From an uncultured Candidatus Saccharibacteria bacterium (GTDB lineage Bacteria; Patescibacteriota; Minisyncoccia; 2-02-FULL-40-12; GWA2-44-9): DNA of 64,000 nt. The first letter of the stretch is position 1, and every line of letters begins with the position of its first letter. Below the pieces are notes generated by a model, which saw only the letters and a list, made by a program, of their open reading frames with translations, made no database searches and was not told where the DNA came from. Made by a program: the position numbers and the translations under genes. This document shows positions 87 to 50,091 of the stretch, piece by piece. The DNA lies in contig CAYZRE010000002.1 of the NCBI GenBank assembly GCA_964479835.1, positions 24,987 to 88,986 on the forward strand, in the 5' to 3' direction.

Positions 87-1427
87 TTATTTCTTTTTTA
101 GCAATGGCCCGTAGGGTGTGTCGTCGACGGAGTAGCCGAGTTCTGTGATTTGGTCACGAAGAGCGTCTGATGCGGTCCAGTCTTTCCGGTCGCGTGCCTC
201 TGTGCGTTGCGCGACAATATTCTGAACATCGTCGGGAACTGCCTCGGGCTCGTGCGGGATGATGCCGAATGTCTCGGAGATGAACTCAAAGAATGAAGGG
301 GGAGGCACTGCGCCTTTCGCGTTTGCTTCTCGAATGAGATCAAACACGGCCGCGAATGCTTTGGGTGTGTTGAAGTCGTCATCCATCGCATCGGCGACAG
401 TGGAAACAGCCGGCGTTTCATCGATGAGTATATCAGAGCGCTTCAACATCAGCTCGCCGATACGATTCACGGCGGCCTGTGCAGTATCGAGTGCTGTTGG
501 AGAGAAATCCAATGGAGCGCGATAGTGATTCGATAGGAAATAGAACCGAAGCACGGCCGGTTCGTACTGCTGTAGTGCTTCATGCAAGGTTAGAAAGTTG
601 CCCAGCGATTTGGACATCTTTTCGGATTTATTTTCCAAGAAACCCACATGCATCCAGTATTTCACGAACGGAACCTTACCCGAGGCCGCCTCCTGCTGGG
701 CAATCTCCGCTTCGTGGTGTGGGAACTTGAGGTCCGTGCCGCCGCCGTGTAGGTCGTACTGCGGGCCGAAGGTGTGCTCGGTAATCGCGGTGTCTTCGAT
801 ATGCCAGCCAGGGCGTCCGGCGCCTAATTCGGAGTCTTCCCAGATGGGTTCGTTTGGCTTTGACAGCTTCCAGATGCAAAAATCGCCCGTGTTACGCTTT
901 TTCTCGTTGTCATCTATGCGAGACACCGCATCATCAGCCAGTAGGCCTGTCCTGCCGGACAATTTGCCGTAATCGGGAAAGGTTGTCAGATCAAAATACC
1001 AGCCATCGCCTTCGATGAGGTAGGCGTTGCCGTTTTTTATGAGCGTTTTTACTTGGGCGATAACCTGGGGGATATAATCGGACGCGCGAGCGTACTGTGA
1101 GACGGCGTCGTTACCGAGTGCCAACATGTCGGCTCGGAATGCGTCATCAAATTGTCGGGCATATTCAAGTGGATTCTCGCTCCGCTCGTTGGCGCGGGCG
1201 ATAATGCGGTCATCGATATCGGTGATGTTCTGAATATAATTCACTTCCAATCCTCGATAGCGCAGCCATTTGGCGACCACATCGAAAATAGTAAATGTGC
1301 GCGCGTTGCCGATGTGAACGCGGTCGTAGACAGTGGGTCCGCAGACGAACATCTCAATATGGTCCGGCGTGCGCGGCACCAGCTCTTCAACCTTTCGGGT
1401 CAGCGAGTTGTAGAGCCGAATGGTCAT
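87..1427 (-). CDS. cysS: cysteinyl-tRNA synthetase
   Basis: 446-aa translation with class I aaRS motifs (HIGNARTF, KMSKS) and overall CysRS-like architecture. Confidence 0.9.
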   Translation of the reverse strand: MTIRLYNSLTRKVEELVPRTPDHIEMFVCGPTVYDRVHIGNARTFTIFDVVAKWLRYRGLEVNYIQNITDIDDRIIARANERSENPLEYARQFDDAFRADMLALGNDAVSQYARASDYIPQVIAQVKTLIKNGNAYLIEGDGWYFDLTTFPDYGKLSGRTGLLADDAVSRIDDNEKKRNTGDFCIWKLSKPNEPIWEDSELGAGRPGWHIEDTAITEHTFGPQYDLHGGGTDLKFPHHEAEIAQQEAASGKVPFVKYWMHVGFLENKSEKMSKSLGNFLTLHEALQQYEPAVLRFYFLSNHYRAPLDFSPTALDTAQAAVNRIGELMLKRSDILIDETPAVSTVADAMDDDFNTPKAFAAVFDLIREANAKGAVPPPSFFEFISETFGIIPHEPEAVPDDVQNIVAQRTEARDRKDWTASDALRDQITELGYSVDDTPYGPLLKKK

Positions 1428-1430
1428 TGG

Positions 1431-2696
1431 CTACGAAAATAACACAAACAGCGTCCCGGTCAAAAGGAAGAAGAGTGCTCCGATGCCAAGCGTATGCACG
1501 GGCAGCGAGGAGCGGTGCGGTCCGACGATGTCCGGATTCTTCGCCATGTGAACGACCAAACCGATGAGTAGCGGCGAACTGATGCCCATGGCGATGGCTG
1601 ACCAGAACAAAGCCTGCACCGGTGTGATCCCCAGGAAGGGGACAATCATACCGACGACGACCGCGCCCACCATAACCAGATAGAACGGGCGCACACGGTT
1701 GAACGGTTTATCGATGCTGGCCTGCCACCCCATCATTTCAGATAACGCGTATGCGGCTGAACCTGCAAGAACCGGAATAGCAAGGAGCCCCGCGCTGATG
1801 ATACCCAAGGTAAACAGAAGAAAGGCGTACTTACCGGCGAATGGCTCTAGGGCGACTGCGGCATCGCGTAATGAAGCGATCTCGGTTGTGCCTCCGGTAT
1901 TCCAGATAACTGAGGCCATGAGCGAAATAATGAAGAACGATATGAGATTTGACGCAATCATGCCAAATTTAGTGTCCAAACCGATAGCGGCCAGCATGCC
2001 GTGGTGAACCGGCCTGAACTTACAGATGCGGATATGGGGACGGTCGAGTTTAAGCTCTTCGGCTTCTTGGGACGCCTGCCAAAAATAGAGATACGGCGAC
2101 AGTGTGGTGCCCAATACCGCGAATGCTGTCAGAAGGAAATCGCGCGATGGTATGACCGTCGGTACCAGCGTACGCCATGCGATAGTGAACCAGTCGGGCC
2201 GGACCAGCACCAAGGCGATGCCATACACAAACAATGACAGCGCGAACCACTTGAAGAACATTTCTATCTGCCGGTAGCGGAGCACAATAACCATGACCAT
2301 GATTATGACCGACATGGCGATTGCCGCAGCCTCGATCGGCACCGAGGGTAGTAACAGATTCACCGCTCCGGCCATGCCGTACATGTCTGCGCCGATGTTG
2401 AGCGTGTTCGCAATCACAATCGAGCCGACCGCAAGCGCCAGCACCCACCCGGGGTAGTGCTTACGGATGTTGCCCGCGAGTCCGCATCCCGACAACGCGC
2501 CGATGCGCGCACACATATTCTGGATGGCAATCATGAACGGCAAAATCCACAGCAGTAACCAGGACAACGCAAAACCAAACCGCGCGCCTGCAATGGCATA
2601 CGTTGCGATAGCCGACGGGTCGTTGTCAGCCGCGCCCGTGACCAGCCCGGGTCCAAGATTTTTCCAGTACTGCGCCAACTTGTCTCTCAGAGTCAT
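1431..2696 (-). CDS. NRAMP-family divalent metal transporter (MntH-like)
   Basis: polytopic membrane protein with NRAMP signature (GPGLVTGAADNDPSAIATY). The ORF runs to 2759, but that extension is simply the reverse complement of the CIRCE operator, so the ATG at 2696 (MTLRDK) is preferred. Confidence 0.75.
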   Translation of the reverse strand: MTLRDKLAQYWKNLGPGLVTGAADNDPSAIATYAIAGARFGFALSWLLLWILPFMIAIQNMCARIGALSGCGLAGNIRKHYPGWVLALAVGSIVIANTLNIGADMYGMAGAVNLLLPSVPIEAAAIAMSVIIMVMVIVLRYRQIEMFFKWFALSLFVYGIALVLVRPDWFTIAWRTLVPTVIPSRDFLLTAFAVLGTTLSPYLYFWQASQEAEELKLDRPHIRICKFRPVHHGMLAAIGLDTKFGMIASNLISFFIISLMASVIWNTGGTTEIASLRDAAVALEPFAGKYAFLLFTLGIISAGLLAIPVLAGSAAYALSEMMGWQASIDKPFNRVRPFYLVMVGAVVVGMIVPFLGITPVQALFWSAIAMGISSPLLIGLVVHMAKNPDIVGPHRSSLPVHTLGIGALFFLLTGTLFVLFS

Positions 2697-2732
2697 AGTT
2701 GTTTTCAGTATACCATACCCCCGTGTGGATAA

Positions 2733-2759
2733 TTGGCACTCTTGACGCGCGAGTGCCAA
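2733..2759. promoter_or_regulatory. CIRCE-like HrcA operator (TTGGCACTC-N9-GAGTGCCAA)
   Basis: perfect 9-bp inverted repeat with a 9-nt spacer immediately upstream of the hrcA ATG. It resembles the CIRCE consensus TTAGCACTC-N9-GAGTGCTAA, and a candidate promoter TTGACG-N17-TAGACT (about 2742-2770) overlaps it. Confidence 0.75.
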
Positions 2760-2776
2760 TTTTGTAGACTGGCAGA

Positions 2777-3541
2777 ATGGTAGTCAGACTGCTAACCCCG
2801 CGACAGCATCAGCTGCTCTGGCGGGTCATAGACCAGCATATCGAAACGGGCGAACCCGTCTCCAGTAAGGCCATAGAATCCAGCGGCCAGTTTGATGTAC
2901 GCTCGGCAACGATTCGCAACGAGATGTCTGATTTGGAAGACATGGGGTTTCTGGAACAACTGCACACCTCCGGGGGCCGCGTGCCGACCGCCTTGGCATA
3001 CCGGCTCTATGTGAACGATTTAGTAGCCGCCGAGGGAATCACCATTGGGCAGGCTTTACGGCACCGCGTCGATGGAGCGCTCAACGATACGGACATGAGC
3101 GATGCCGAAGCGCTCAATCGCACGCTGGCACGATTGGTGGGCGAGTTGTCCAGCAACCTGGTTATTGCGAACACCTCCGAACGTCAGGACGCCTACAAAT
3201 TCGGTCTTTCGAACCTGATGGCGATTGCGGAATTTCGTGAGATGGACCGCCTTATGGGGCTGACCGATTTTTTTGATCATTTTGAGTCTATGTTCGAGCG
3301 GATGCATCAGCAAATGTGGCGGCAGGAGGAAGGGGATGTAAAAGTAATGATAGGAACCGAGAATCCACTGCGACAGATACAGGATGAAGCGGTCATCGTC
3401 GCACGGTACCGCCTCCCCCGAGGTCACGAGGGAACGCTCACCCTGGTAGGACCGATGCGCATGGATTATCGCAAGAATCTGGGACTGATGACCTACGCAG
3501 CACAGATAGCAAACCGTATTACCGATAGCACCCGAAACTAA
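2777..3541 (+). CDS. hrcA: heat-inducible transcription repressor HrcA
   Basis: N-terminal winged-helix region and HrcA-like length; sits first in an hrcA-grpE-dnaK operon directly downstream of CIRCE. Confidence 0.85.
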   Translation: MVVRLLTPRQHQLLWRVIDQHIETGEPVSSKAIESSGQFDVRSATIRNEMSDLEDMGFLEQLHTSGGRVPTALAYRLYVNDLVAAEGITIGQALRHRVDGALNDTDMSDAEALNRTLARLVGELSSNLVIANTSERQDAYKFGLSNLMAIAEFREMDRLMGLTDFFDHFESMFERMHQQMWRQEEGDVKVMIGTENPLRQIQDEAVIVARYRLPRGHEGTLTLVGPMRMDYRKNLGLMTYAAQIANRITDSTRN

Positions 3542-3542
3542 T

Positions 3543-3992
3543 ATGACACACGCACCAAAAAACCAAGAACCGGAAGTATCGATGATTGAGAAAGAGAAGT
3601 ATCTGCGACTTGCCGCCGATATGGACAATCTCCGAAAGACCCAAGCCCACGCCGCGGCCGAAATGGCAAAGTGGGCGACGCAGGCGGTTGTCACCGATAT
3701 GTTGGAGCTCTCTGATCTCCTGGATACCGCACTGGCACATGCACCGCCGACAGCGACAGACGGTGCCTGGTATGAGGGGTTACGACAGGTGGCGAAGCAG
3801 TTCCTGGAAAAGCTAAAACGATACGGGGTCTCGAGGATTGAGACAACAGGGAGGACATTTGATCCTTCAACGATGGAGGCGGTACAGATGGTGACGGGTG
3901 GTGAGAGTCATCAGGTGAAAGAAGAAGTGCGGGCAGGATATATAATGCACGAGAGAATCATTCGGCCGGCGAGGGTCATTATCTACGAATAA
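3543..3992 (+). CDS. grpE: nucleotide exchange factor GrpE (short form)
   Basis: 149 aa with a GrpE-like C-terminal region; position between hrcA and dnaK. Confidence 0.8.
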   Translation: MTHAPKNQEPEVSMIEKEKYLRLAADMDNLRKTQAHAAAEMAKWATQAVVTDMLELSDLLDTALAHAPPTATDGAWYEGLRQVAKQFLEKLKRYGVSRIETTGRTFDPSTMEAVQMVTGGESHQVKEEVRAGYIMHERIIRPARVIIYE

Positions 3993-4009
3993 TTAACTAA
4001 CAAAATAAC

Positions 4010-5893
4010 ATGACAAAAATACTGGGAATTGATTTGGGAACAACGAACTCGGCAATGGCGATTGTCGAAGATGGTCAGCCGCGTATTTTGGAGAACGCAG
4101 AAGGGGTTCGCACAACGCCGTCGATTGTGGCAGTCGGTAAGAATGGCGAGCGCTACACCGGGGTGACGGCGAAGCGACAGGCGGTCACGAATCCGAAGAA
4201 CACGCTGTATTCTGTGAAACGGCTTATCGGTCGTCGTTGGGGCGACGCTGAAGTACAACGCGATTTGAAACTGTTGCCGTATGAAATCCGCAAAGGTGCG
4301 GGGGACTCGGTAGAGGTGAAGATGGGCGACAAGTGGTACAAACCGGCAGAAATGTCGGCGATGGTGTTGGGCAAACTCAAATCTGATGCCGAAGCAAAGC
4401 TCGGTACGAAAATCACTGAGGCCATCATTACGGTCCCGGCATATTTTGACGACTCACAGCGTCAGGCAACAAAAGACGCCGGCGAAATCGCGGGACTGAC
4501 CGTGAAGCGCGTTATCAACGAGCCGACCGCGGCGGCGTTGGCATACGGTTTCAACAAGAAGAAAGACGAAAAAATTGTGGTGTACGATTTCGGCGGCGGG
4601 ACCTTCGATATTTCGGTATTGGAAGTCAGCGCCGATACCATCGAGGTCAAGGCGACCGGCGGAGACACGCACCTGGGAGGCGACGATATCGACCAGCGCA
4701 TCATCCAACACTTTGTCGAGGAGTTCAAAAAGGACCAGGGTGTTGATGTATCGCATGACCAGCTGGCCCTCCAGCGTCTTAAAGATGCCGCAGAAAAAGC
4801 AAAGCACGAACTGTCCAGTACTGCGCAGACGGAAATCAATATCCCGTTTTTGACCGCAGACGCATCGGGTCCCAAGCATTTCAGTCTCACCCTGACCCGT
4901 TCAAAACTTGAAGCCCTCACCCAGGACCTCATCGACCGTTCAATTGATCTCACGAAGAAGGCCGTTGCCGATGCCGGACTGAAGATGGGCGATATTCACG
5001 AGGTGTTGATGGTCGGCGGTCAGACCCGCATGCCGGCAATCGTGGATGCAGTGAAGACATTGTTCGGCAAAGAGCCGCACCGTGACATCAATCCTGACGA
5101 GGTAGTGGCGCTTGGCGCGGCCATCCAGGGTGCCGTGATGTCCGGTGATGTCCGCGATGTCCTTCTCCTGGATGTAACGCCATTGACCCTTGGCATTGAG
5201 ACACTCGGTAGTGTTATGACGCAGATGATTGAGAAGAACACTACGGTGCCGACCAGCAAGAGCCAGACCTTCAGTACCGCGGCCGACAATCAGCCGTCCG
5301 TGCAGATTCGCGTAGCCCAAGGTGAACGGCCGATGTTCAACGACAATAAGTATCTCGGCGAGTTCAATCTCGACGGTATCCCACCGGCACCGCGCGGCGT
5401 GCCGCAAGTTGAAGTAACCTTCGATATCGATGCTAACGGCATCCTCCATGTGAAAGCAAAAGATAAGGGAACCGGTAAAGAGCACTCTATCCGTATCGAG
5501 GGCTCCGGAGGTTTGAGCAAGGAGGAGAAGGAACGCATGGTCAAAGATGCTCAGGAACACTCCGCAGAGGACGCTACAAAAAAAGAAGAGGTGGACGCTA
5601 AGAACGCGGCCGAGACGCTCATGTGGACAACCGAGAAGATGTTGCATGACAACAAGGACAAGATTAAAGAGGAAGATAAAAAGGATATAGAGGGAAAAAT
5701 CATGGAGTTAAAGAACGCACTCAAAGACGGAGAGATGGAAAAAATCCGCACAACAGGGGATGCGCTGGGGGAGGCGGCACAGAAGGTCGGCGCCGCGATG
5801 TACGCGCAGGAAGAAAAGAAAACCGGCGAACCCGAGACTCAAACTGCCCAAGAAGCAAAGCCGGAGGAAAAAGCAGAGGAAAAGAAGGAATAA
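4010..5893 (+). CDS. dnaK: chaperone DnaK (Hsp70)
   Basis: Hsp70 signatures [31 protein letters not shown]; 627 aa. Confidence 0.95.
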
Positions 5894-40307: not shown

Positions 40308-40428
40308 GAGCGGCGCGGCCATGCCATTCAGCAGACCGCTTCGGAGGACGACTGGCCCGAGAACGCAGAAGCCCCGCCAGCAAGGCGGGGCTTCGTGTCT
40401 GTCCAGTGGTATGGCCGCGGAGCTCGAC
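40308..40428. repeat. structured ~120-nt intergenic element, copy B
   Basis: about 85 percent identical to copy A, with the terminal helix preserved through a wobble and a compensatory pair (CGCGGCCATGCC/GGTATGGCCGCG) and the identical inner 11-bp hairpin GAAGCCCCGCC-agcaa-GGCGGGGCTTC. Confidence 0.5.
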
Positions 40429-40436
40429 ACGAACAG

Positions 40437-40604
40437 CTAGCCGAGAAAGGCGAATAACTTATAGATTAGGAATGCCGGCCACACGAGAGCCTTGAGGAAA
40501 CCCACAGCGACCGACTCAAACCCAATCGATTGCTGGTAGAAATACACCGCTGCCCCGATAAATCCGAGAAAGTACACGCCCCCTCCGGTAGCTTCATTTC
40601 TCAT
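40437..40604 (-). CDS. tiny two-TM membrane protein
   Basis: 55 aa from the ATG at 40604 (MRNEATGGGVYFLGF...). The ORF track's longer version overlaps the upstream gene. Confidence 0.3.
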   Translation of the reverse strand: MRNEATGGGVYFLGFIGAAVYFYQQSIGFESVAVGFLKALVWPAFLIYKLFAFLG

Positions 40605-40614
40605 GTTCGTATGA

Positions 40615-40824
40615 TTAATTAATAAACCAGAATGGGTTGCCGAATCGGAGCTTGTTGAGCAAATCAAATGTCGGCGACTGGTCGGTGGCCGCTGACGGGT
40701 CACCATTGCCCCACGCAACGAGAATGTTTGCCTCCCCTTTTTCGTAGTACCCCATCACCGCCGATACATACGCGGCGCCCAACAGTACCAGTAGCCATTT
40801 CAACTTCCTTGATTTGCGCCTCAT
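40615..40824 (-). CDS. small single-TM membrane protein
   Basis: 69 aa, preceded by GCGGGGGAGTAGA about 12 nt upstream of the ATG. Confidence 0.35.
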   Translation of the reverse strand: MRRKSRKLKWLLVLLGAAYVSAVMGYYEKGEANILVAWGNGDPSAATDQSPTFDLLNKLRFGNPFWFIN

Positions 40825-40857
40825 GTCCCCATTCTACTCCCCCGCCTCCCTCCCCGC

Positions 40858-40881
40858 AAACGGCTCACCGATGAGCCGTTT
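40858..40881. repeat. REP-like palindrome copy 4 (AAACGGCTCA-ccga-TGAGCCGTTT) plus adjacent half-copy at 40889-40900
   Basis: 10-bp perfect inverted repeat, with an extra ATGAGCCGTTTA half immediately after. Confidence 0.6.
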
Positions 40882-40897
40882 AATTTCTATGAGCCGT

Positions 40898-41293
40898 TTA
40901 GTTCGTAAATGAAATCGTCAGCTGCAGCGCAGTGGCAAAGAGTCCCCAGAATAAGTACGGCAGAAGAAGCCAGAAGGTTGGACGCAGTACTCGCCATGCT
41001 CGCCATTGAATATACGATAGCGATACGAGCACGAGCAGAATATCCAAAGATGCCGGCCACAGCGGTGTCAGACCTAATTGAATAGGCGTAAACAAAAGAT
41101 TGGCAATCCAATTAATGCCAAACGCCCAGAGGAATCCGCGAGGTGCGCGCCCCTTCCATACCGCATACGCGGTGTACACGGTTGCTATGATGAAAAGAGG
41201 ATAGATGATGCCCCAAGCAACGCCGAACAGCCATGCGGGCGGGGCCCATGGAGGAAGCAGGATGCTCTGATAGAACTCCGCGTAGCTCAACAT
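40898..41293 (-). CDS. tspO: TspO/MBR-family tryptophan-rich membrane protein (short)
   Basis: Trp-rich 131 aa with LPPWAPPAWLFGVAWGIIYPLF matching the TspO N-terminal motif. Confidence 0.6.
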   Translation of the reverse strand: MLSYAEFYQSILLPPWAPPAWLFGVAWGIIYPLFIIATVYTAYAVWKGRAPRGFLWAFGINWIANLLFTPIQLGLTPLWPASLDILLVLVSLSYIQWRAWRVLRPTFWLLLPYLFWGLFATALQLTISFTN

Positions 41294-41330
41294 AACTGAA
41301 GCTCATTATACACCCAACCCCTCTTGAGAT

Positions 41331-41364
41331 AAACAAAAAGAGCCCGCCACAGTGGGGCGGGCTC
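41331..41364 (-). terminator. intrinsic terminator (GAGCCCGCC/GGCGGGCTC + T-tract)
   Basis: 9-bp stem with a T-rich tract on the minus strand, after the gene ending at 41371. Confidence 0.55.
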
Positions 41365-41370
41365 GGACGG

Positions 41371-41910
41371 TCAGGGCTGGAATAATTCTTCGGGCATCAG
41401 ACGCACCTCACGCACCCCCGAAAATTGCTTCGCCGTGTTTTCGATCTGCGCCCGTAAGATGCTCACAAAACATGAACCGCCACCCGTGCGATTGTCGGGG
41501 TCATTGAATGTCAGCGTCAGAACACCGCCAGTCAGCGATGCCGCAGTAAGGGTGACGCGCTTAAGTGGAAGTTCGGAGACCATGCCCTGGGCGCTTTCGG
41601 CTGATGTGGGTTTGGTTATCAGGAGAAGCCGAATCGTGTCCTGGATAGGGGTATTCGTGAACGGAATTTCACGGGTAGCGGGCATCGAACCGCCGGTACT
41701 GCACATGATATTTCCGGACGCATCCTTATCGAGCTCGGGATTGTAGAAGAAAAGCTTCACGCTCCGCATCGCAACCGGAGATGACGACGGTACCACACTC
41801 GGAATCAGTGCACTCGGAAGCCCGCTATAATATCCCAAAGCGATTGCGACGGCAATCGCAATCACAACAAGTACTCCCGCCATCTTTATTTGCTTTGAGA
41901 TTCGCTTCAT
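41371..41910 (-). CDS. GerMN-domain lipoprotein-like protein
   Basis: N-terminal TM/signal, LFFYNPEL...LTLTFNDP pattern typical of GerMN domains. Confidence 0.55.
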   Translation of the reverse strand: MKRISKQIKMAGVLVVIAIAVAIALGYYSGLPSALIPSVVPSSSPVAMRSVKLFFYNPELDKDASGNIMCSTGGSMPATREIPFTNTPIQDTIRLLLITKPTSAESAQGMVSELPLKRVTLTAASLTGGVLTLTFNDPDNRTGGGSCFVSILRAQIENTAKQFSGVREVRLMPEELFQP

Positions 41911-42008
41911 ACCCCAATGTTACTCTCCCACCTTCCTCCCCGCAAACGGCTTCCGCAAAAGAAAAACCGGCAGGCGGAGGCGCCTGCCGGTCCAAACGTT
42001 GCGAAATT

Positions 42009-42326
42009 CTACTTCTGCTTGTCGATGGTCCAGATGTAGCCGGCGGATGTCAGGTCGATGACCTTCCGGGCGCGCGACCGACCGTCGTCGTACTCGGCGA
42101 AGAGCGAGTGCTCTCCCACCTCGTATCTGACGTTGCACTCGCGTTGCGGGGTGGCACGGCAGGTCTCCTCGTCGCCGTCCACCGAGAACACGAGCGGGTC
42201 GGCCGTGTTGTTGATGAACCTGATCAGCCCCGTGCTCTGGGCCTGCACCGGCGGCGGCTGTACCGCGAACCCCGCCATCAGCGCCAGCAGACCAATCGAC
42301 AACACCATCAAGACTGCCTTTCTCAT
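42009..42326 (-). CDS. small secreted hypothetical protein
   Basis: signal peptide MRKAVLMVLSIGLLALMAGFAVQPPPVQA; RBS AAAGGAGG. Confidence 0.5.
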   Translation of the reverse strand: MRKAVLMVLSIGLLALMAGFAVQPPPVQAQSTGLIRFINNTADPLVFSVDGDEETCRATPQRECNVRYEVGEHSLFAEYDDGRSRARKVIDLTSAGYIWTIDKQK

Positions 42327-42409
42327 ACGACCTCCTTTGTTACTGCGAGTTCACACTATAACACACTAATTCCCTCCCCGCAAACCGACCATTTTCCAAA
42401 AAGCAGCGG

Positions 42410-42961
42410 CTATTTCTGATTGATAGCTAGAATTTCGTTAACGCGCTTGAGAACTAGATCGCCATCTAACATCTCGCGTCCTTTAATGCGAAGTAATGGA
42501 AGGTTAGCCGACTCAAGAATACGCTGAACCTCAATATCGCGTTGGATTCTATCTGGCCGCTCATGTGAAGGGTCATCTAGCTCAATCGCTAGTACCGTGT
42601 GGAGACTATTTTTCTCACACAATACGTAATCAACTGACTTTTCGTCGATATGCCGAAACGCACCAAACCAGCTCTGGCCCTTAATCTTGTGCTCAACAAT
42701 CGATGGCAAGTGGATTTGCGGGAATACCAAAAAACGGTCGCCGATTATCCGCGTAAGAAGGCGAAAGAACTCCTGCTCTGTATGCGTCATAACAGAAGCT
42801 TTTCTCCCGTAGAGATATTTATACGGCTGTGCCTTTTGTGTCTTTCTACGAAATAGGCCTACCAGCACCACGAGCACGATAAGGCCAAGAATAATCGGCC
42901 AAAACGGCTTCACGAACGTGAAGAACGCATTCACTATTTGCCAAAAATCGAGATTGATCAT
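42410..42961 (-). CDS. DUF2726-like (NERD / PD-(D/E)XK-related) membrane-anchored protein
   Basis: N-terminal TM, then YVLCEKNSLHTVLAIELDDPSH core typical of DUF2726; start overlaps the RM gene stop (ATGA); AT-rich codon usage. Confidence 0.55.
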   Translation of the reverse strand: MINLDFWQIVNAFFTFVKPFWPIILGLIVLVVLVGLFRRKTQKAQPYKYLYGRKASVMTHTEQEFFRLLTRIIGDRFLVFPQIHLPSIVEHKIKGQSWFGAFRHIDEKSVDYVLCEKNSLHTVLAIELDDPSHERPDRIQRDIEVQRILESANLPLLRIKGREMLDGDLVLKRVNEILAINQK

Positions 42962-45900
42962 TTTATTTTGTCGATTTCTTCCATGATACGGTCGGTTTCG
43001 GTGAGCGCAACAATAATTTTTTGATAATGTGAGATATCATCAAATGACAATTTCATACCACGTCGATCTTTCAACCACTTCTGAGCTGGCAAGTAGCTAC
43101 CCATAACATACCCAAACGCTTCTTCGGATATATTTTGAAAACTTTGCGTTTCATTAATAAATACTTCACCCTTCCTGAATATAGGGAACTTCGGACCAAC
43201 GATGTTACTGCCGAGTGCTGGAAACTTGGATGTGTAGTTACCGATCTCGGGATGTTCTAGTAGATGATAGAGGCGCAGGTCTCTGCCTTTTTGGACGAGC
43301 TTCAGAAATGTCTCCTTATTTGACGGGTACGGAATACGCGGGAAGTCCGTCTTCAGGAATTCTTGGTATTTTTTTCGATAATTTAGTGAGTATAGCGTCG
43401 CATAGATGTAGTCAAGGATATCTTCTGACGATATGGCACCGACAACATTTTCTATTTTGCTCACTATTTCTTTCCTTAGATTAGAGGTTCGTGTATTATC
43501 GTCAGAGTAAAGATATAGCGGGAAGACGTAGCCAGCCTCCTTAGTTCGATTCGTTAGGAGGCACATGTCAATTAGACCCCTTCCAATGAAGGCGTGGTTA
43601 AATTCATTGACTGCCAGCTGGCGAGGAACGAGAAGTGCGATGTTGTCTCGTTCGAGAAGATGCTTCATAATCGCATACCGGGGACGAGCAATGAAACCCT
43701 TATTTTCGTGGGTATAGTATATCCATCTAACATCGAATGGACGGTAAGATATTTGCCTCAAATGAGATTCGGAGAAATTTCTTTCTACATCGTTCTTTGC
43801 GTTCGGCAGCTGCCAGCTACTAGTATCTTTCGGAATGCCGTACTTCTGGCGCAATGCGACAACATCCAAACTCTTAAAATCTAGAACACGCTGTTGGAGC
43901 ATTTCTTTTCTTTGATCGATGGCCAACTCATCCCTGAACGTTGCAATTCCAACACTGGACTCTAAGAATAATTCATCGAGACTGAATCCTCGTCTGTATT
44001 CTTCTCTGCCCTCCATGTTCTTATCCACAAAGAAATACATCTGGTCATCGAGTGACACCTCTTGCCAGTTTGGTTTATAAGAATCTAGGGCAGTAAATTT
44101 CGAACGACGAGAGCCGAATAAGTCGTCATGATATACTCTGGCCGGTTGATTGGCCTTCTTGTCTCCTGTTTTCACGGCAATCAAGATTGCTACTCCCTGT
44201 TGAATATCAAAGACGTTTTCATCTTTGTTGCCATCGGGAGAAAGTTCCTCCTTTTTTAGATTGCCATGGAGATCGAGTACATAGATTGAATCGAAAGTTT
44301 TTGTCAGATGCCATCGCATACCACGAAACGTTGGGTTATCAATGTAGCCGTGAGCTGTGATCATGGCTACGATGCCCGTACCAGTTTTCTCAATAAAACT
44401 CTCTGCTAAACGGATAAACTTAACATAATCATCGTTCAGCCATTTTGAATTCCGCTCTTGTAGCTTCATTCTCCCGCCAGGCTCTACTTTATACACATCA
44501 TGCCCCGTATACTGCTTATTTTGAGACTCACCTTTATATGGCGGATTGCCAATAACGACCATAACCGGCAACTCTTCTTTTACTCGTGAAGCACCAATAG
44601 ACTCTTCGGTAAGCGAACGCATCAGTCCGAATTCAAGCTGTGGTTGCACGGCGCCCGCGGGTTCCAAAGAATTTGTAAGATACACACCGATTCTGTCGTT
44701 TGGTTCGGCACCTGTTTCAGTCAGAACCATGGATAACTTGAGGTGTGCGACAATATAACTTGCGACGAGAAGCTCGAATCCGTGCATTCGTGGAAGTAAG
44801 TGTTCATTTACATAACTTGGCCATTGACCTTTTTGACTCTCAAATGACTCGTATATCTTGTGGATAGTCTCATTCAAGAATGTTCCGGTACCAACAGCGG
44901 GGTCCAAAATCTGGACACGGTGAATCTGTTCCTTAACTTTTTTAAACTGGCCTGTTTTATTAGTCTCCTGAATAGAAATCTCATGCTCAACCTTAGAAGT
45001 GTCTGCCAGTCCTTTTGAGAGACCAAAATCGCGACGAAGAATCTCGTCCACCGATCGAACGATGAAACGTACAATAGGCGGGCGAGTATAAAATACGCCA
45101 CGATCTAACTTCTGCCCTTTATCGTATTCTCCCAAAAAGTCTTCATAGAAATGAACAACGGGATCAAGTGCTTCGGGGTCCTTACCCCACAAACCTACTT
45201 GCCTGAAGCGATCCTCCATAATTCCCTTGACATCAGCTGCGGTAAATATTAAAGATAAATCGGAAACGATATAATCAAGTCTTGAGTCAAACTCTGGGCC
45301 AGAAATATGATTAAAGAACTGCCTTAAAAAGGGGTTAGAGCGTGGCACAAGGCCTTGTGCTTCCTGTCTTGAAAAATTCCCTGGCGTTTTATCGTAGAAG
45401 CGAGCTACAAATAGGCCATATACTAATGTTTGGGCATACATATCCGCAAATTGCTCGATCGTTAGGTCGTGTATAAGAAGACGCTTAAAAACGTCGAATT
45501 GTTCAAGAAGCGATCGACTTTTCTCTCCACCTTCTTTGCTATAGATGACAATATTTTCTCGAAGACGACGCCCTCGACCACCCATGATTCGAGACAATTT
45601 TTCTGCAGAGGTTATCGTTTGAGCTCCGAGTTCAAGAAACGCTGAAAGTTCGCGGACTAGTAACTCATATGCCTCCGCGTGAAATACCAATCCCTCTCCA
45701 TGACGAGATGCGATAATGATTTTTTCTCCATAGGGTTCGCCGTCTCGGAAAAATCGAAATTCAATGTAGTTCGTCAATATAAGCTTCGGATATCCTAGAT
45801 ACCTCTCGAGTTGTTCCGATGTCTGGACTTTATCCAAGTTTACAGCGAGGTCCTTCGTTTCAATGTAGGCAAGAGGAACTGCCCCTTTTTTAACAATAAA

Positions 45901-46071
45901 GTCGGGCGCTCCAAACTGAGAACGCTTTGGCTCATTAATTATCTGGCAGTTCTCGCATGTAGTCCCCAGAAACTCTTCAAAGGGTGCGCGATAAGAATGC
46001 TCACCAGCCTCGCCAGTTGCAAACTTGCCGCCGATTTTTCCGAGATACTCCGCGACTTTATGTGCAGTCAC
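42958..46071 (-). CDS. Type IIG restriction-modification enzyme (fused PD-ExK endonuclease, gamma-class N6-adenine MTase and TRD; MmeI-like)
   Basis: 1037 aa; N-terminal PD-(D/E)XK (GAPDFIV...AYIETKDL), MTase motif I ILDPAVGTGTFL and motif IV VIGNPPYKG in gamma order, long C-terminal TRD; apparent GTG start; AT-rich. Confidence 0.75.
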   Translation of the reverse strand: MTAHKVAEYLGKIGGKFATGEAGEHSYRAPFEEFLGTTCENCQIINEPKRSQFGAPDFIVKKGAVPLAYIETKDLAVNLDKVQTSEQLERYLGYPKLILTNYIEFRFFRDGEPYGEKIIIASRHGEGLVFHAEAYELLVRELSAFLELGAQTITSAEKLSRIMGGRGRRLRENIVIYSKEGGEKSRSLLEQFDVFKRLLIHDLTIEQFADMYAQTLVYGLFVARFYDKTPGNFSRQEAQGLVPRSNPFLRQFFNHISGPEFDSRLDYIVSDLSLIFTAADVKGIMEDRFRQVGLWGKDPEALDPVVHFYEDFLGEYDKGQKLDRGVFYTRPPIVRFIVRSVDEILRRDFGLSKGLADTSKVEHEISIQETNKTGQFKKVKEQIHRVQILDPAVGTGTFLNETIHKIYESFESQKGQWPSYVNEHLLPRMHGFELLVASYIVAHLKLSMVLTETGAEPNDRIGVYLTNSLEPAGAVQPQLEFGLMRSLTEESIGASRVKEELPVMVVIGNPPYKGESQNKQYTGHDVYKVEPGGRMKLQERNSKWLNDDYVKFIRLAESFIEKTGTGIVAMITAHGYIDNPTFRGMRWHLTKTFDSIYVLDLHGNLKKEELSPDGNKDENVFDIQQGVAILIAVKTGDKKANQPARVYHDDLFGSRRSKFTALDSYKPNWQEVSLDDQMYFFVDKNMEGREEYRRGFSLDELFLESSVGIATFRDELAIDQRKEMLQQRVLDFKSLDVVALRQKYGIPKDTSSWQLPNAKNDVERNFSESHLRQISYRPFDVRWIYYTHENKGFIARPRYAIMKHLLERDNIALLVPRQLAVNEFNHAFIGRGLIDMCLLTNRTKEAGYVFPLYLYSDDNTRTSNLRKEIVSKIENVVGAISSEDILDYIYATLYSLNYRKKYQEFLKTDFPRIPYPSNKETFLKLVQKGRDLRLYHLLEHPEIGNYTSKFPALGSNIVGPKFPIFRKGEVFINETQSFQNISEEAFGYVMGSYLPAQKWLKDRRGMKLSFDDISHYQKIIVALTETDRIMEEIDKIK

Positions 46072-46076
46072 AATTC

Positions 46077-46110
46077 TTCAAATCTACCAAAAAACCGGCC
46101 TTGTGGCCAG
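46077..46110. repeat. ~34-nt repeated upstream element, copy 1 (minus-strand reading CTGGCCACAAGGCCGGTTTTTTGGTAGATTTGAA)
   Basis: near-identical to copy 2 at 46601-46632; lies immediately 5' of the RM start codon. Confidence 0.5.
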
Positions 46111-46119
46111 TTCTCGGTG

Positions 46120-46143
46120 AACGGCTCACCGAATGAGCCGTTT
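46120..46143. repeat. REP-like palindrome copy 5 (AACGGCTCA-ccgaa-TGAGCCGTT)
   Basis: same family as the other copies, between the RM gene start and the upstream gene's stop. Confidence 0.55.
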
Positions 46144-46156
46144 GATCCCGTGGTAT

Positions 46157-46591
46157 TCAGACGAGTTGCGGAATTTTCAGTAGCTTGCGTATCTCATTGA
46201 GGTCATCATCATTTCTAAGGGCATTATTGCCCGGACCTAGGCCGTTCGAGAGTCTGATGAGCCGCCGCGCAGCGTCCGCAACATTTCTGTCGTCGTTCTT
46301 TGTACGAAAAACCAGTTGTTTTCTCGATGCTTCTAAATCGCATGAATTTCTACGAAGATCGTCCGAGCATTTTTGATAGCGCTCCGGCCAAAAAGAATTT
46401 TCACTAGGCGGAATAGGGTTTGTTATTACATTCGCGTAATATTTCAATTCGTTATCGATTTTCCCAATCACTCCCTTATATTCTTGCAGGGGCACTAGAA
46501 CGAACCTTTGGATTGTTTCGCCTATCAGAAAAATAACCACGCCAGATATGACGGTCTGAAAAACTGTACTTCCGAGAAGGGTCGCGATCAT
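46157..46591 (-). CDS. hypothetical protein with N-terminal TM helix
   Basis: The ORF track starts at TTG 46612 inside the repeated element; the ATG at 46591 (MIATLLGS...) is preferred; no family recognised. Confidence 0.4.
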   Translation of the reverse strand: MIATLLGSTVFQTVISGVVIFLIGETIQRFVLVPLQEYKGVIGKIDNELKYYANVITNPIPPSENSFWPERYQKCSDDLRRNSCDLEASRKQLVFRTKNDDRNVADAARRLIRLSNGLGPGNNALRNDDDLNEIRKLLKIPQLV

Positions 46592-46600
46592 GTCAGGCGA

Positions 46601-46632
46601 CAAATCTAACAAAAAACCGGCCCCGTGGCCAG
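46601..46632. repeat. ~34-nt repeated upstream element, copy 2
   Basis: minus-strand reading CTGGCCACGGGGCCGGTTTTTTGTTAGATTTG, about 5 mismatches to copy 1. Confidence 0.5.
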
Positions 46633-46670
46633 TCGTGGAGTAGGGTCGGTAATGTAGTAGGGCAGCTCGT

Positions 46671-47327
46671 TTAAACTAGCGTTGCCTGGGAACCACCCAA
46701 TAGGACTTGATTAATGAGATCGTGATACAGCCTACTAGCTAGTGTAGTATTGAAGTCGGGATCATTGGAGGCTGTTAGCAATAGCAGTTTTTCTCTATAT
46801 AGGCCCTGTGACTTTAAAAAGGCGATTTCCGCAGAGTCTCCTAAAATCATTGATTCTATAACTTTGAAGGCAGGGTCCAGAAAAAACTCGGCCACTTTAT
46901 CCTCCAGCTGTTCTTGCTTAGTTTGCTTATTGAGATGGACGAATTGAAAATTCTTTTTGTATCCGATAAAACATTTCCCACCAAGATTGATAATTTCGGG
47001 GCCAAGCTTTTCGCCAGCATCACAGGCAAGAGCGTGAACAAATTTCCCCTGCATTATTTTGGCATTTTCTCCAACCCGAATCAGTATTTCTCTGTTATAT
47101 CCACACAGATGATCTGGGCCCCCGTGTCCGTTAAAAAAAACAATCTGGGGATCATTCTCTGATATAGCGGTCTCAATATTTACTCGAGTGACCGAAGGGC
47201 CCGATAATTCTATAACTACTGTCTCGGGCTGTTTTTTAGCCAGCTCAACCACTCGGTCACACCAGGCACCTATATACTCAGTGGGCCGATCGTGAGCCGG
47301 GTTTGTAAAAACCAGTATGCGGCTCAC
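46671..47327 (-). CDS. caspase-like (C14-type His/Cys dyad) fold protein, candidate peptidase
   Basis: 218 aa; hydrophobic first strand RILVFTNP, then FFNGHGG (metacaspase YSGHG-like) and HALACDAGEK (D-x-C-x-x-G-like Cys motif) in the order expected for a caspase/metacaspase dyad; GTG start. Confidence 0.45.
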   Translation of the reverse strand: MSRILVFTNPAHDRPTEYIGAWCDRVVELAKKQPETVVIELSGPSVTRVNIETAISENDPQIVFFNGHGGPDHLCGYNREILIRVGENAKIMQGKFVHALACDAGEKLGPEIINLGGKCFIGYKKNFQFVHLNKQTKQEQLEDKVAEFFLDPAFKVIESMILGDSAEIAFLKSQGLYREKLLLLTASNDPDFNTTLASRLYHDLINQVLLGGSQATLV

Positions 47328-47581
47328 TGGGTGACAAGATTAGGGTTAGCAATCTTAGCAACAATGCCAGTTCTTAGGGCGCGTAGAAATTCCATTTCTG
47401 TCTCGATATAGTCCAAGCCAATAGTAGACTCATTGGTAACATGTTGAATCATCTCATCTCGAGAGATATTGGCCGCCTGGTCTCCGCTGGAAAAGTGAAG
47501 ATTTCGAGACAAAATTTCTAGTCGAGCTAAGATTGTTTCTTTTACTACCGGATCGGCTGATTTTTGCACAACTTTTTTCAT
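47324..47581 (-). CDS. hypothetical small protein
   Basis: 85 aa, start overlaps upstream stop, stop overlaps downstream start (operon coupling). Confidence 0.4.
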   Translation of the reverse strand: MKKVVQKSADPVVKETILARLEILSRNLHFSSGDQAANISRDEMIQHVTNESTIGLDYIETEMEFLRALRTGIVAKIANPNLVTQ

Positions 47582-47584
47582 ATT

Positions 47585-47782
47585 CTAGATTAGCTGTAAG
47601 CGCTCAAGCTCGCTAAGGATTTTTTCAGAAAGTTCTGTTTTTGCCTTCACTTCAATAAATGCAACATCCCAAGTAATGGGTTTTTGTATTCCGTCTAACT
47701 CAATCACCAAAATAATCTCATTTCGGAGACTTAATGGAATGTTGGAGTAAACTCTTAGAAACCGTTCCCTGAGATCATCCAT
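47585..47782 (-). CDS. hypothetical small protein (first gene of island operon)
   Basis: 65 aa; sits 26 nt downstream of a perfect promoter. Confidence 0.4.
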   Translation of the reverse strand: MDDLRERFLRVYSNIPLSLRNEIILVIELDGIQKPITWDVAFIEVKAKTELSEKILSELERLQLI

Positions 47783-47808
47783 AAATAGTACTTTGTAATT
47801 GGGGAAGG

Positions 47809-47837
47809 ATTATACGCTATTTACTAGGGGGAATCAA
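47809..47837 (-). promoter_or_regulatory. sigma70-type promoter TTGATT-N17-TATAAT driving the island operon
   Basis: read on the minus strand; -10 TATAAT about 27 nt upstream of the ATG at 47782. Confidence 0.5.
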
Positions 47838-48068
47838 GATGGGATGAGCCTCTATATACTAAAATTTACCATTTTTGTGCCAGCAGGGACAAGGGGACAA
47901 CTAAGATGCGCGTGGCCATTTGCGAGCGCACCACCCGGGCCCTGGCATGCTCGCTTGCTGTACCAAAGCCGAGCGAACAGCGATGGCGACGTTACGCACC
48001 GGGAGCGGACAGGGCTTGGGTGGTAAGCGAGAACAGAAACCCCGCCGATTGGCGGGGTTTCTTCTGCG

Positions 48069-48611
48069 TTACCGTTTCGCCCATCTTGGACCCTTCCTCG
48101 CTTTTTTGAGACCGGGTTTCTTTCTTTCGACTTTTCTCGGATCGCGGGTGAGGAAACCTGCCTTCTTCAATTTCTTACGGAAATTCGCATCGAACAGCTC
48201 GAGACAGCGCGAGATGCCGTGGCGAACAGCGTCGGCCTGACCCGAGATACCGCCTCCGTTAACATGCGCGGTGACCTTGAAGCGCTGAAGCGATTTCAGG
48301 CGGCGGAGCGGTTGCTCGACGCGCAGAATGAGGTTCTTATCCAAAAAGTATGCGGCATAGTCCTTATCGTTGACGGTCATGAGCGCGGCATCCTCGGTGA
48401 GCTTGTCGCCCGACTTGCGGGTCATCAGGCGCACGCGCGCAACGGCTGTTTTGCGGCGGCCGACCGCTTCGAAATACTTCTCCTTGGCTCCCTCGGGAAG
48501 TTCTTCCAGTGTCATCGGGCCCAGCTCAATGTCATCATCGTCGCGAACAGTGTCCACGAAGGTGGGAGTGGCGGGCTTTACGGTGATTTCTTCGGGTTGG
48601 GTGGTTGCCAT
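48069..48611 (-). CDS. rpsI: 30S ribosomal protein S9 with N-terminal extension
   Basis: C-terminal GLKKARKGPRWAKR and RRKTAVARVRL core; about 45-aa acidic N-terminal extension. Confidence 0.85.
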   Translation of the reverse strand: MATTQPEEITVKPATPTFVDTVRDDDDIELGPMTLEELPEGAKEKYFEAVGRRKTAVARVRLMTRKSGDKLTEDAALMTVNDKDYAAYFLDKNLILRVEQPLRRLKSLQRFKVTAHVNGGGISGQADAVRHGISRCLELFDANFRKKLKKAGFLTRDPRKVERKKPGLKKARKGPRWAKR

Positions 48612-49347: not shown

Positions 49348-50091
49348 CTACTCTTTTTTGGCTTTCTTCTCTTTCTTAATTTTCTTTGCCACGCGTGCCT
49401 CCTGCTCGGGGACGGCAATCTTGGCAACAAGCGCAAAGTGATCGGCAAGAATCGTGGCCGCTTCCTTCATCGCCTCTTCGGGCTGGACGGCGCCGTCGGT
49501 TTCGATTTCCATCGTGACCTTGTTGAAGTCGATGCGCTGTCCGACGCGGACATCTTCGATGCTGAAGTTCACCAGACGAACCGGTGAGTAGGCCGCATCA
49601 ATGGCGATAACGCCGATGGGCAGTTTCTCTTTCTGGCGCATCTCCACGGAGACATACCCGCGGCCCTTTTGTACCGTGAGCTCCATGTCCAGCTCGGCTT
49701 TCTTGTCGGTGAGCGTGCAGATGTGCTGGTCGCGGTTGATGAGCTCTACATCAGAGGTGAGTTGGATGTCGTCGGCGGTGACTTTGCTCTCGCCCTTGGC
49801 GATGAGTTTGACGGTGATGGGCTCATTGGAGAAACAGCGGAAGCGGAGCTTCTTGAGGTTGAGGATGATTTCAACGATATCCTCCTGTACCCCCGAGATG
49901 GCACCAAACTCGTGCTCTACGCCCTTAATCTTGATGGAGGTGACCGCAGACCCCTCCAGAGACGACAACAGCACGCGCCGGAGCGGGTTTGCTACGGTGG
50001 CGCCGTATCCGGGCATCAGAGGACCGATTTCGAACACGGCCTTGTTGCCCTCTTTCTTTACTACTTTTACTTCTTCGGGAAGCTGTATCAT
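49348..50091 (-). CDS. rpoA: DNA-directed RNA polymerase alpha subunit (NTD only, no alpha-CTD)
   Basis: alpha NTD dimerisation/assembly region recognisable; the protein ends at 247 aa with a Lys-rich tail, no alpha-CTD. Confidence 0.8.
   Translation of the reverse strand: MIQLPEEVKVVKKEGNKAVFEIGPLMPGYGATVANPLRRVLLSSLEGSAVTSIKIKGVEHEFGAISGVQEDIVEIILNLKKLRFRCFSNEPITVKLIAKGESKVTADDIQLTSDVELINRDQHICTLTDKKAELDMELTVQKGRGYVSVEMRQKEKLPIGVIAIDAAYSPVRLVNFSIEDVRVGQRIDFNKVTMEIETDGAVQPEEAMKEAATILADHFALVAKIAVPEQEARVAKKIKKEKKAKKE

Follow-up and report, generated by a model that had tools for sequence, protein, structure and literature searches.

A low-GC island of a Candidate Phyla Radiation bacterium with a Type IIG restriction-modification enzyme and a conserved three-gene cassette for a minimal clan CD cysteine protease

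Introduction

Caspase-like proteases have recently emerged as executioners of bacterial immunity, with Craspase, SAVED-CHAT and the gasdermin- and EACC1-activating proteases as examples. To our knowledge, all immune caspase-like proteases described so far are coupled to a large sensor, and we know of no clan CD protease among the recognised toxin classes of toxin-antitoxin (TA) modules. Type IIG/IIL restriction-modification (RM) enzymes are single proteins that methylate their site on host DNA and cleave unmodified DNA nearby. The ultra-small symbionts of the Candidate Phyla Radiation (CPR) and of the DPANN archaea are generally reported to have few of the well-known defence systems. Here we analyze a stretch of 64,000 nucleotides (nt) from an uncultured CPR bacterium (contig CAYZRE010000002.1, positions 24,987 to 88,986), in the following called the window, and within it a low-GC island of 5.5 kb. 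The island encodes a Type IIG/IIL RM enzyme, a DUF2726 protein, a small membrane protein and a cassette of three genes, A, B and C, the last of which codes for a caspase-like protease. An earlier reading of the letters without database searches (the sequence-only reading) had described this segment as a horizontally acquired, AT-rich island with RM and candidate defence genes.

On its own, the island is of a familiar and routine kind, a genomic island of the defence type that carries a Type IIG RM enzyme. The novel part is the cassette: its fold and its general logic are known, but its makeup matches no curated family and no published system that we found. The known systems Craspase TPR-CHAT, SAVED-CHAT and Avs-caspase are coupled to sensors (TPR/Cas7-11, SAVED and a STAND NTPase, respectively), and none of these is present in A, B or C or in their neighbours. 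With type II and tripartite TA modules the cassette shares small overlapping genes, an own promoter, a patchy distribution, a location between housekeeping genes, a composition unlike that of the host and an occasional clustering with TA or RM genes. Unlike these modules, it has no known toxin or antitoxin domain, and its largest component is a clan CD protease.

Small proteins encoded 5' of caspase-like proteases have been described as protease-activated death effectors (PMC12642450). The EACC1, Pepco/Trypco, CATASP and gasdermin modules of that study resemble the cassette in that small non-enzymatic proteins are encoded directly 5' of a caspase-like protease within one operon. There, the protease is part of a fusion with a sensor (Avs, diversity-generating retroelement-linked, and others), and a single effector forms pores after cleavage. 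The cassette has in contrast two soluble small proteins and a protease that lacks a sensor.

Results

Gene content of the island

The island is wholly filled by six genes, all on the minus strand (Table 1). In the direction of transcription, a promoter-like site is followed by A, B and C, a hairpin, the gene for a protein of 144 amino acids (aa), a second hairpin, the RM gene and the DUF2726 gene. The left flank harbors genes for a TspO (1e-19) and a GerMN protein, the right flank rpsI, rplM, rplQ and rpoA. This matches the location between a TspO/GerMN region and the rpsI ribosomal cluster that the sequence-only reading had given.

Table 1. Position of the island and of the features within it (coordinates refer to the window)
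Feature	Position	Strand	Evidence
Low-GC island	42390..47880	.	Profiles of GC, GC3 and tetranucleotides; approximate on the left, sharp on the right
DUF2726 protein, 183 aa	42410..42961	-	Pfam DUF2726 3e-27; phrog_14167 1e-12; hydropathy
Type IIG/IIL RM enzyme, 1037 aa, single chain, GTG start	42958..46071	-	PADLOC PDLC03610 4e-279; Pfam; motifs
33-nt repeat, copy 1	46079..46111	-	Repeat search; fold -19.8 kcal/mol, z -3.7
Membrane protein, 144 aa	46157..46591	-	Open reading frame (ORF) list; start from independent gene call; hydropathy
33-nt repeat, copy 2	46601..46633	-	Repeat search; RNA fold
Gene C, 218 aa, minimal clan CD cysteine protease	46671..47327	-	
Gene B, 85 aa, soluble	47324..47581	-	78/78 proximal upstream ORFs; no Pfam/PDB sequence match
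Gene A, 65 aa, soluble, first cassette gene	47585..47782	-	71/71 distal upstream ORFs; no Pfam/PDB sequence match
Promoter-like TTGATT-17 nt-TATAAT	47809..47837	-	Consensus scan, 10/12 matches, best in region

Genes A, B and C form a conserved and translationally coupled unit

The A-B-C cassette is a strictly conserved, translationally coupled unit. A profile search with C retrieved 1,991 clusters (50% identity), nearly all of about 215 aa. We compared the gene order in 80 loci from a metagenome scan and in the additional loci L001, L085, L002 and L169. Two small ORFs on the same strand precede C wherever upstream sequence exists. In phmmer searches, A of the window matched all of the distal ORFs (71/71) and B all of the proximal ones (78/78), with zero cross-matches between the two sets. 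The closest homologue of C (61% identity) was found on a contig with 36% GC (L001), where homologues of A and B precede it, and L085 likewise has the order A-B-C. The three-gene operon with a caspase-like protein, as proposed in the sequence-only reading, was thus recovered, the caspase-like product being encoded by its last gene.

The stop codon of B overlaps the start codon of C by 4 nt in the window. Across the loci, the median spacing was -1 nt between A and B (mode -4) and -8 nt between B and C. Protein A is strongly conserved, with F8, N14, P16, R20, W38, E44 and L56 invariant in the alignment. Protein B is less conserved than A; G33 and G55 are invariant, and R20 and L66 nearly so. Neither A nor B showed an evident hydrophobic or amphipathic segment in hydropathy profiles.

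None of the three proteins of the window matched an entry in Pfam, NCBIfam or PHROGs, and family-wide Pfam scans and PDB profile searches for A and B gave nothing consistent. For 63 A and 67 B sequences, no consistent Pfam match was obtained at E <= 0.05, the presence of the EACC1, Pepco/Trypco and CATASP models in that Pfam copy being unchecked. In PADLOC-DB v2 at E <= 0.1, the RM enzyme was the only product of the island with a match; A, B, C, the membrane protein and the DUF2726 protein were unmatched. A literature search found no description of a minimal clan CD cassette in CPR or DPANN genomes.

Gene C encodes a minimal clan CD cysteine protease

Protein C is a minimal cysteine protease of clan CD (caspase-hemoglobinase fold) with an intact catalytic dyad (His68-Gly69 and Cys102) and is predicted to be cytoplasmic. 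It has an alpha/beta fold, in which the catalytic His and then the Cys follow consecutive central strands, the arrangement that defines clan CD. A signal peptide, a prodomain and a sensor domain are lacking. Compared to other clan CD peptidases (gingipains C25, CHAT, separase, metacaspases/caspases C14, legumain C13), the C proteins of about 215 aa are near-bare catalytic domains, without prodomain, p10/p20 processing linker, TPR, SAVED or Ig domain, or secretion signal.

The protein of the window did not match any of the curated clan CD families (C11, C13, C14, C25, C50 and CHAT) in Pfam or NCBIfam. Within the C family, 4 of 130 members weakly matched Pfam Peptidase_C25 (best 7e-7) and one matched CHAT. 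Fold matches in BFVD were all weak and concerned caspase- or clostripain-like proteins of giant viruses.

Some family members deviate from the soluble form. A hydrophobic C-terminal tail is present in P0092 and P0347, and several membrane helices in P0324; a sub-family of C thus appears to be membrane-anchored.

Distribution and neighbourhoods of the cassette

The named hosts of the cassette are Parcubacteria, Patescibacteria, Moranbacteria and one Nanohaloarchaea archaeon. The archaeal locus (L169; metagenome-assembled genome (MAG) contig JBDGRK010000005, 5573-6645) harbors the complete A-B-C cassette (hmmsearch 9e-18, 1e-18 and 1e-79). It lies there in an islet of 37-41% GC, between genes that Pfam assigns to a CDC48-type ATPase (plus intein) and to a RecA/Rad51/KaiC-type ATPase. 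This indicates transfer of the cassette between the domains. Over 30 loci, the GC content of the cassette was below that of its flanks in 23, with a mean difference of -3.3 points and a maximum of -11.5.

The neighbourhoods of the cassette are not conserved among the loci. The genes directly 3' of it are mutually unrelated and encode RecQ, PilM, RNase J, a glycosyltransferase, Rrf2, a glycosidase or RhuM. A census of the 145 neighbours up to 4.5 kb away was led by AAA_21 (AbiEii-like; four cases), followed by RhuM, ABC_tran and Peptidase_M23 with three each and by Fic, N6_Mtase/Eco57I and Bro-N with two each; many housekeeping genes occurred once. A ParE-ribbon-helix-helix (RHH) pair is located near the cassette of L085. 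A fixed fourth gene was not seen: the membrane protein, the DUF2726 protein, a 105-aa protein of the left flank and GerMN had no homologues in 83 cassette loci.

A homologue of the RM enzyme was present in one of these 83 loci (L102; Ga0209542_10006228, 1148-5323), where the cassette is directly followed by the gene for an RM enzyme of 1027 aa with 48% identity to that of the window. The pair is flanked there by genes that look like housekeeping genes and which we take to encode a serine hydroxymethyltransferase and an aminoacyl-tRNA synthetase. Adjacency of cassette and RM gene was thus seen twice independently and is to be regarded as anecdotal.

Base composition of the island

As claimed in the sequence-only reading, the segment is richer in AT than its flanks and uses other codons; composition was not uniform when computed across the window, and the island stood out. 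Over 500-nt windows, a GC content of 0.56-0.59 gives way to one of 0.40-0.47 between about 42.3 and 47.9 kb. The five 1-kb windows within the island had a GC content of 0.425-0.451, compared to 0.546 +/- 0.019 outside (z = -5.0 to -6.3), and all other 1-kb windows of the 64 kb were at 0.498 or above, which makes the island the sole region of this kind. Measured by tetranucleotide usage, the island departs from the rest of the window by a distance of up to 0.41, against a background of 0.10-0.18.

Third codon positions show the greatest drop, with GC3 values of 0.37-0.50 in the six island genes and of about 0.56-0.73 in the neighbour genes. Synonymous codon choice is shifted as well. From the rest of the window to the island, AGA rises from 0.05 to 0.21 and CTA from 0.05 to 0.19, and CGC falls from 0.43 to 0.18. 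At the right edge, the GC content over 60 nt changes from 0.47 to 0.65 at 47880, and this change is complete within about 20 nt; the DNA beyond is host-like, with 47927-48023 being 82% identical to an intergenic element of the relative L004. The left edge is fuzzier and lies at about 42390-42410, just beyond the stop codon of the DUF2726 gene. The island is compositionally foreign to the host window.

The proposed insertion site in related genomes

The host is a CPR bacterium whose best matches for ribosomal protein S9 come from Yanofskybacteria, Paceibacterota and related MAGs. A look-up of the identical S9 sequence returned no record. In four relatives (L004-L007) with 61-86% identity in S9, the ribosomal cluster follows the gene order of the window over eight or nine genes, as far as rpsI. 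In the 10 kb 3' of rpsI, all six island genes are absent from these genomes and the composition is flat. The genes of the left flank of the window are absent there too, so that the site itself is not conserved. The comparison did not recover the adjacency of rpsI and the TspO region. The end of rpsI is a general synteny breakpoint, which fits a variable region and which prevents a clean empty-site test.

A GerMN protein with 65% identity is encoded in another relative (L168; Logan SRR22387922, 1-2980). Directly 5' of it lies a different low-GC block, which encodes a fragment of an XRE-like helix-turn-helix protein, an HNH protein of 230 aa and a DUF2726 protein of 128 aa with 31% identity to that of the window. 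This suggests that the spot by GerMN is a hotspot of repeated insertion or has long been variable in this lineage.

We also compared the window with independent Logan contigs of the run SRR6868923. They reproduced positions 40361-44999 and 45001-47980 at 100% identity. The left contig extends 2 kb beyond the left junction and reaches into GerMN and TspO, and the right contig passes the compositional switch on the right by 100 nt, into the GC-rich spacer that is conserved in L004.

The RM enzyme and the DUF2726 protein

By its sequence, the 1037-aa protein falls among the ordinary Type IIG/IIL RM enzymes with a single chain, in agreement with the Type IIG assignment of the sequence-only reading. 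It matched the PADLOC model REase_MTase_IIG over its full length, and in Pfam it matched Type_ISP_C (6e-76), MmeI_Mtase, N6_Mtase and Eco57I. The N-terminus has the nuclease motif PD56...E71-x-K73, followed by an N6-adenine methyltransferase with motif I (DPAVGTGTF, 390-398) and motif IV (NPPY, 509-512) and by a C-terminal Type_ISP_C target-recognition domain. PDB matches to LlaBIII (1e-38), 7LO5 (3e-34) and LlaGI (2e-28) cover the methyltransferase and target-recognition part alone (query 385-1007). Homologues of about 42% identity over 99% of the length are encoded on plasmids of Pseudomonas, Acinetobacter and Agrobacterium, and others of about 35% identity on Borrelia plasmids. The island genes have their closest relatives on plasmids and in genomes with a GC content of 36-48%.

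The full-length plasmid homologues carry the NCBI label 'type ISP restriction/modification enzyme'. The Type ISP class (LlaGI/LlaBIII) was ruled out for the enzyme of the window, which has no helicase or translocase domain and no helicase match in Pfam; it is also much shorter (1037 aa vs 1406-1578 aa). Its closest known counterparts are the MmeI/DrdV-like Type IIG/IIL enzymes (the adenine-specific enzyme 7LO5 has about 1029 aa) and the methyltransferase-target recognition module of LlaGI/LlaBIII. The features in common are a single chain of about 1,030 aa, an N-terminal PD-ExK nuclease motif, a gamma-class N6-adenine methyltransferase (NPPY) and the Type_ISP_C target-recognition domain. The enzyme would methylate its own site in the host DNA and cut unmodified incoming DNA nearby.

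The RM gene is translationally coupled to the DUF2726 gene, the stop codon of the former and the start of the latter overlapping by 4 nt; no DUF2726 gene is annotated beside the two plasmid homologues that we inspected. Identification as a DUF2726-like protein was confirmed by Pfam (PF10881; 95.2 bits vs a gathering cutoff of 24.7), and a match to REase_MTES_1575 was weak. The protein has an N-terminal transmembrane helix at about residues 19-37, followed by a PD-(D/E)xK nuclease-like domain; DUF2726 has been assigned to the PD-(D/E)xK superfamily (PMC3424549). Judged by these features, the coupled and membrane-anchored protein may contribute a second nuclease activity.

The membrane protein, the hairpin repeat and the promoter-like site

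The true start of the membrane-protein gene is probably at 46591, which results in a protein of 144 aa. Hydropathy shows a single N-terminal transmembrane helix, as the sequence-only reading had suggested, and the remainder is a soluble helical tail. The only match in the libraries was phrog_7512 (8e-6). No homologue adjoins the cassette in the 83 other loci, and none was found among phage records.

The repeated upstream elements noted before are a direct repeat of 33 nt in two copies, which are 91% identical and each form a terminator-like hairpin with a U-run. Copy 1 lies 8 nt 5' of the GTG start of the RM gene. Copy 2 lies 10 nt 5' of the membrane-protein start and serves as the terminator-like site after gene C (hairpin with U-run, 46634-46615). 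The repeat may be a shared attenuator or an element that controls read-through.

The consensus promoter that had been proposed for the island lies 27 nt 5' of the ATG of gene A (Table 1). The region as a whole has no more promoter-like matches than expected from shuffling, which leaves only the location of this site as informative. Similar sites were present 5' of gene A in 23 of 48 other loci, compared to 8 of 48 in a coding control, which was not adjusted for the AT-richer intergenic DNA.

Side observations on the flanks

On the host side of the left junction, an exact repeat of 13 nt, CCTCCCCGCAAAC, occurs at 41935-41947 and 42373-42385. It reads GTTTGCGGGGAGG on the coding strand and resembles a ribosome-binding site; the copies are located 25 and 47 nt 5' of the starts of GerMN and of the gene for the 105-aa protein.

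On the right side, the GC-rich element of about 100 nt at 47927-48023, between the rpsI terminator and the island, has its counterpart at 4322-4419 of L004, a Yanofskybacteria MAG. In L004 it occupies the opposite end of the ribosomal cluster, and its relative orientation is reversed. Both copies fold as one long hairpin (31-34 pairs) with three to four compensatory pairs, and the element is a candidate for an unannotated small RNA. In an Rfam search of the window, only one tRNA reached the threshold, and sub-threshold matches in the spacer were driven by the rpsI terminator hairpin.

The S9 protein encoded by rpsI (48069-48611) has an N-terminal extension of about 50 aa (Pfam S9 domain at residues 51-180), which is common to the three closest relatives. 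The ORF at 49348-50091, which we take to be rpoA from reading its N-terminal sequence, codes for no more than 247 aa, and the alignments with its homologues in relatives cover about 227-230 residues. This is a small size for the alpha subunit of an RNA polymerase, and the C-terminal domain may be reduced or missing.

Discussion

We consider it probable, with moderate confidence, that the segment is a composite accessory island of the defence type, which a moderately GC-rich, Yanofskybacteria-like CPR genome acquired from donors of lower GC content and which includes A-B-C as a possible module of the TA or abortive-infection type. The transfer event itself we infer from several lines of evidence: the composition of the island, the absence of its genes from the 10 kb 3' of rpsI in four relatives, the dozens of unrelated settings in which the cassette occurs, one of them archaeal, the RM homologues on plasmids (about 42% identity), and the different low-GC insert with XRE-like, HNH and DUF2726 genes by GerMN in L168. 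All of these support the horizontal acquisition that the sequence-only reading had claimed. Of its candidate defence genes, the RM enzyme stands by homology; for the cassette, the membrane protein and the DUF2726 protein the role in defence is hypothetical.

In this explanation, the island would lie in a variable region directly 3' of the rpsI end of the ribosomal cluster and would be transcribed from the minus strand as three units, namely the A-B-C cassette, the membrane protein gene, and the RM gene together with the DUF2726 gene. The data show the foreign composition, the identities of the genes, the fold and dyad of C, and an A-B-C linkage that is strict over a wide but patchy distribution. 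What we say about the functions of A, B, C, the membrane protein and the DUF2726 protein, and about RM activity, we infer from sequence features. A and B are obligate small partners of C, and translational coupling would provide them in a fixed ratio. Since C has neither a prodomain nor a sensor, control in trans by A and/or B would be most likely. They could act as inhibitors or pseudosubstrates of C, or as pro-effectors that are cleaved by C, a suggestion by analogy that we put forward tentatively, as slightly less probable than not. Disturbance by infection or by loss of the cassette would then release proteolysis and halt growth, a logic like that of TA and abortive-infection modules and of the protease-small-effector modules such as EACC1 and Pepco (PMC12642450). 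A wider proposal is more doubtful, and we regard it as no better than one plausible possibility. It holds that A-B-C is an autonomous conflict system not described before, in which a miniature caspase-like protease without a sensor is restrained by its two dedicated small proteins or activates them, and that this system moves horizontally among CPR bacteria and DPANN archaea.

Several observations weigh against acquisition as a defence-type block. A true empty site was not found, and synteny stops at rpsI in all available relatives. The closest GerMN homologues are 61-65% identical and their loci are rearranged (L166, L167). Because a DUF2726 gene also adjoins GerMN in L168, the DUF2726 gene could be an older resident of a variable spot and not part of one block. 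Neither the island, as already noted in the sequence-only reading, nor the adjoining 7 kb on its left contains a Pfam domain of an integrase or transposase, and there is no tRNA gene within 12 kb, the nearest being at 60.4 kb. Direct repeats, att sites or target-site duplications above chance were not found at the flanks either; the search of the borders yielded only matches of 12-15 nt, as expected by chance. As to the cassette, A and B have no homology to any known antitoxin, inhibitor or effector, the three genes are unmatched in PADLOC, and C had no counterpart in phage and plasmid collections by tblastn. Defence and mobile genes are only modestly enriched among the cassette neighbours, a count made with no background comparison and therefore suggestive. 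The commonness of the cassette in CPR genomes is compatible with a lineage-specific cellular function as well.

The last point leads to the strongest of the alternatives. A-B-C may be a lineage-specific cellular system of CPR and DPANN symbionts, for example a processing protease with two small substrates or adaptors, and may lie beside the RM gene by chance. The abundance of the family in CPR-type metagenomes (1,991 clusters) would be expected of such a system, and so would immediate neighbours that are mostly housekeeping genes, the lack of matches in PADLOC, PHROGs, phages and plasmids, and the C-terminal membrane anchor of some C proteins. Nevertheless, the four closest relatives lack the cassette in the syntenic region, it is shared by bacteria and an archaeon, and its neighbourhoods are not conserved. 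The GC content of the cassette is mostly below that of its flanks, strongly so in the window and the archaeal locus. Its own promoter and overlapping genes, moreover, resemble those of addiction modules. We consider a cellular system unlikely, albeit a serious competitor.

Much less credit can be given to the view that the low-GC stretch is native and owes its composition to local constraint, such as amino-acid usage or expression level. Borders without mobility gene, tRNA or direct repeats and the failure to recover an empty site would fit native DNA. Constraint of this kind is difficult to reconcile with a drop that is greatest at synonymous third positions and alters synonymous codon choice, that is confined to one region in 64 kb and ends within about 20 nt at 47880, and with closest gene relatives in 36-48% GC genomes and on plasmids. 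We judge this explanation to be improbable.

Even less probable is a remnant of a prophage or integrative element that has lost its recombination module. RM genes are often found on mobile elements, and the DUF2726 protein (1e-12) and the membrane protein (8e-6) match PHROG families of unknown function; against this, the six genes that fill the island include no structural, replication or recombination genes, neither C nor the membrane protein matched phage records, and a single scan of viral contigs for C was negative. That the island is a fragment of another organism, joined by an assembly or binning error, is very improbable, since the independent contigs from the same run span both compositional switches at 100% identity, even though the window comes from a metagenome-assembled contig and the Logan contigs break at 45000/45001 and 47980.

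Should the A-B-C cassette turn out to be a conflict module, it would exemplify protease-gated cell control in minimal form and would be a candidate defence or addiction system for hosts whose immunity is poorly known. If it is a cellular system instead, it would represent a widespread unknown function of ultra-small symbionts. On either reading, A-B-C is a compact three-protein unit that is experimentally tractable.

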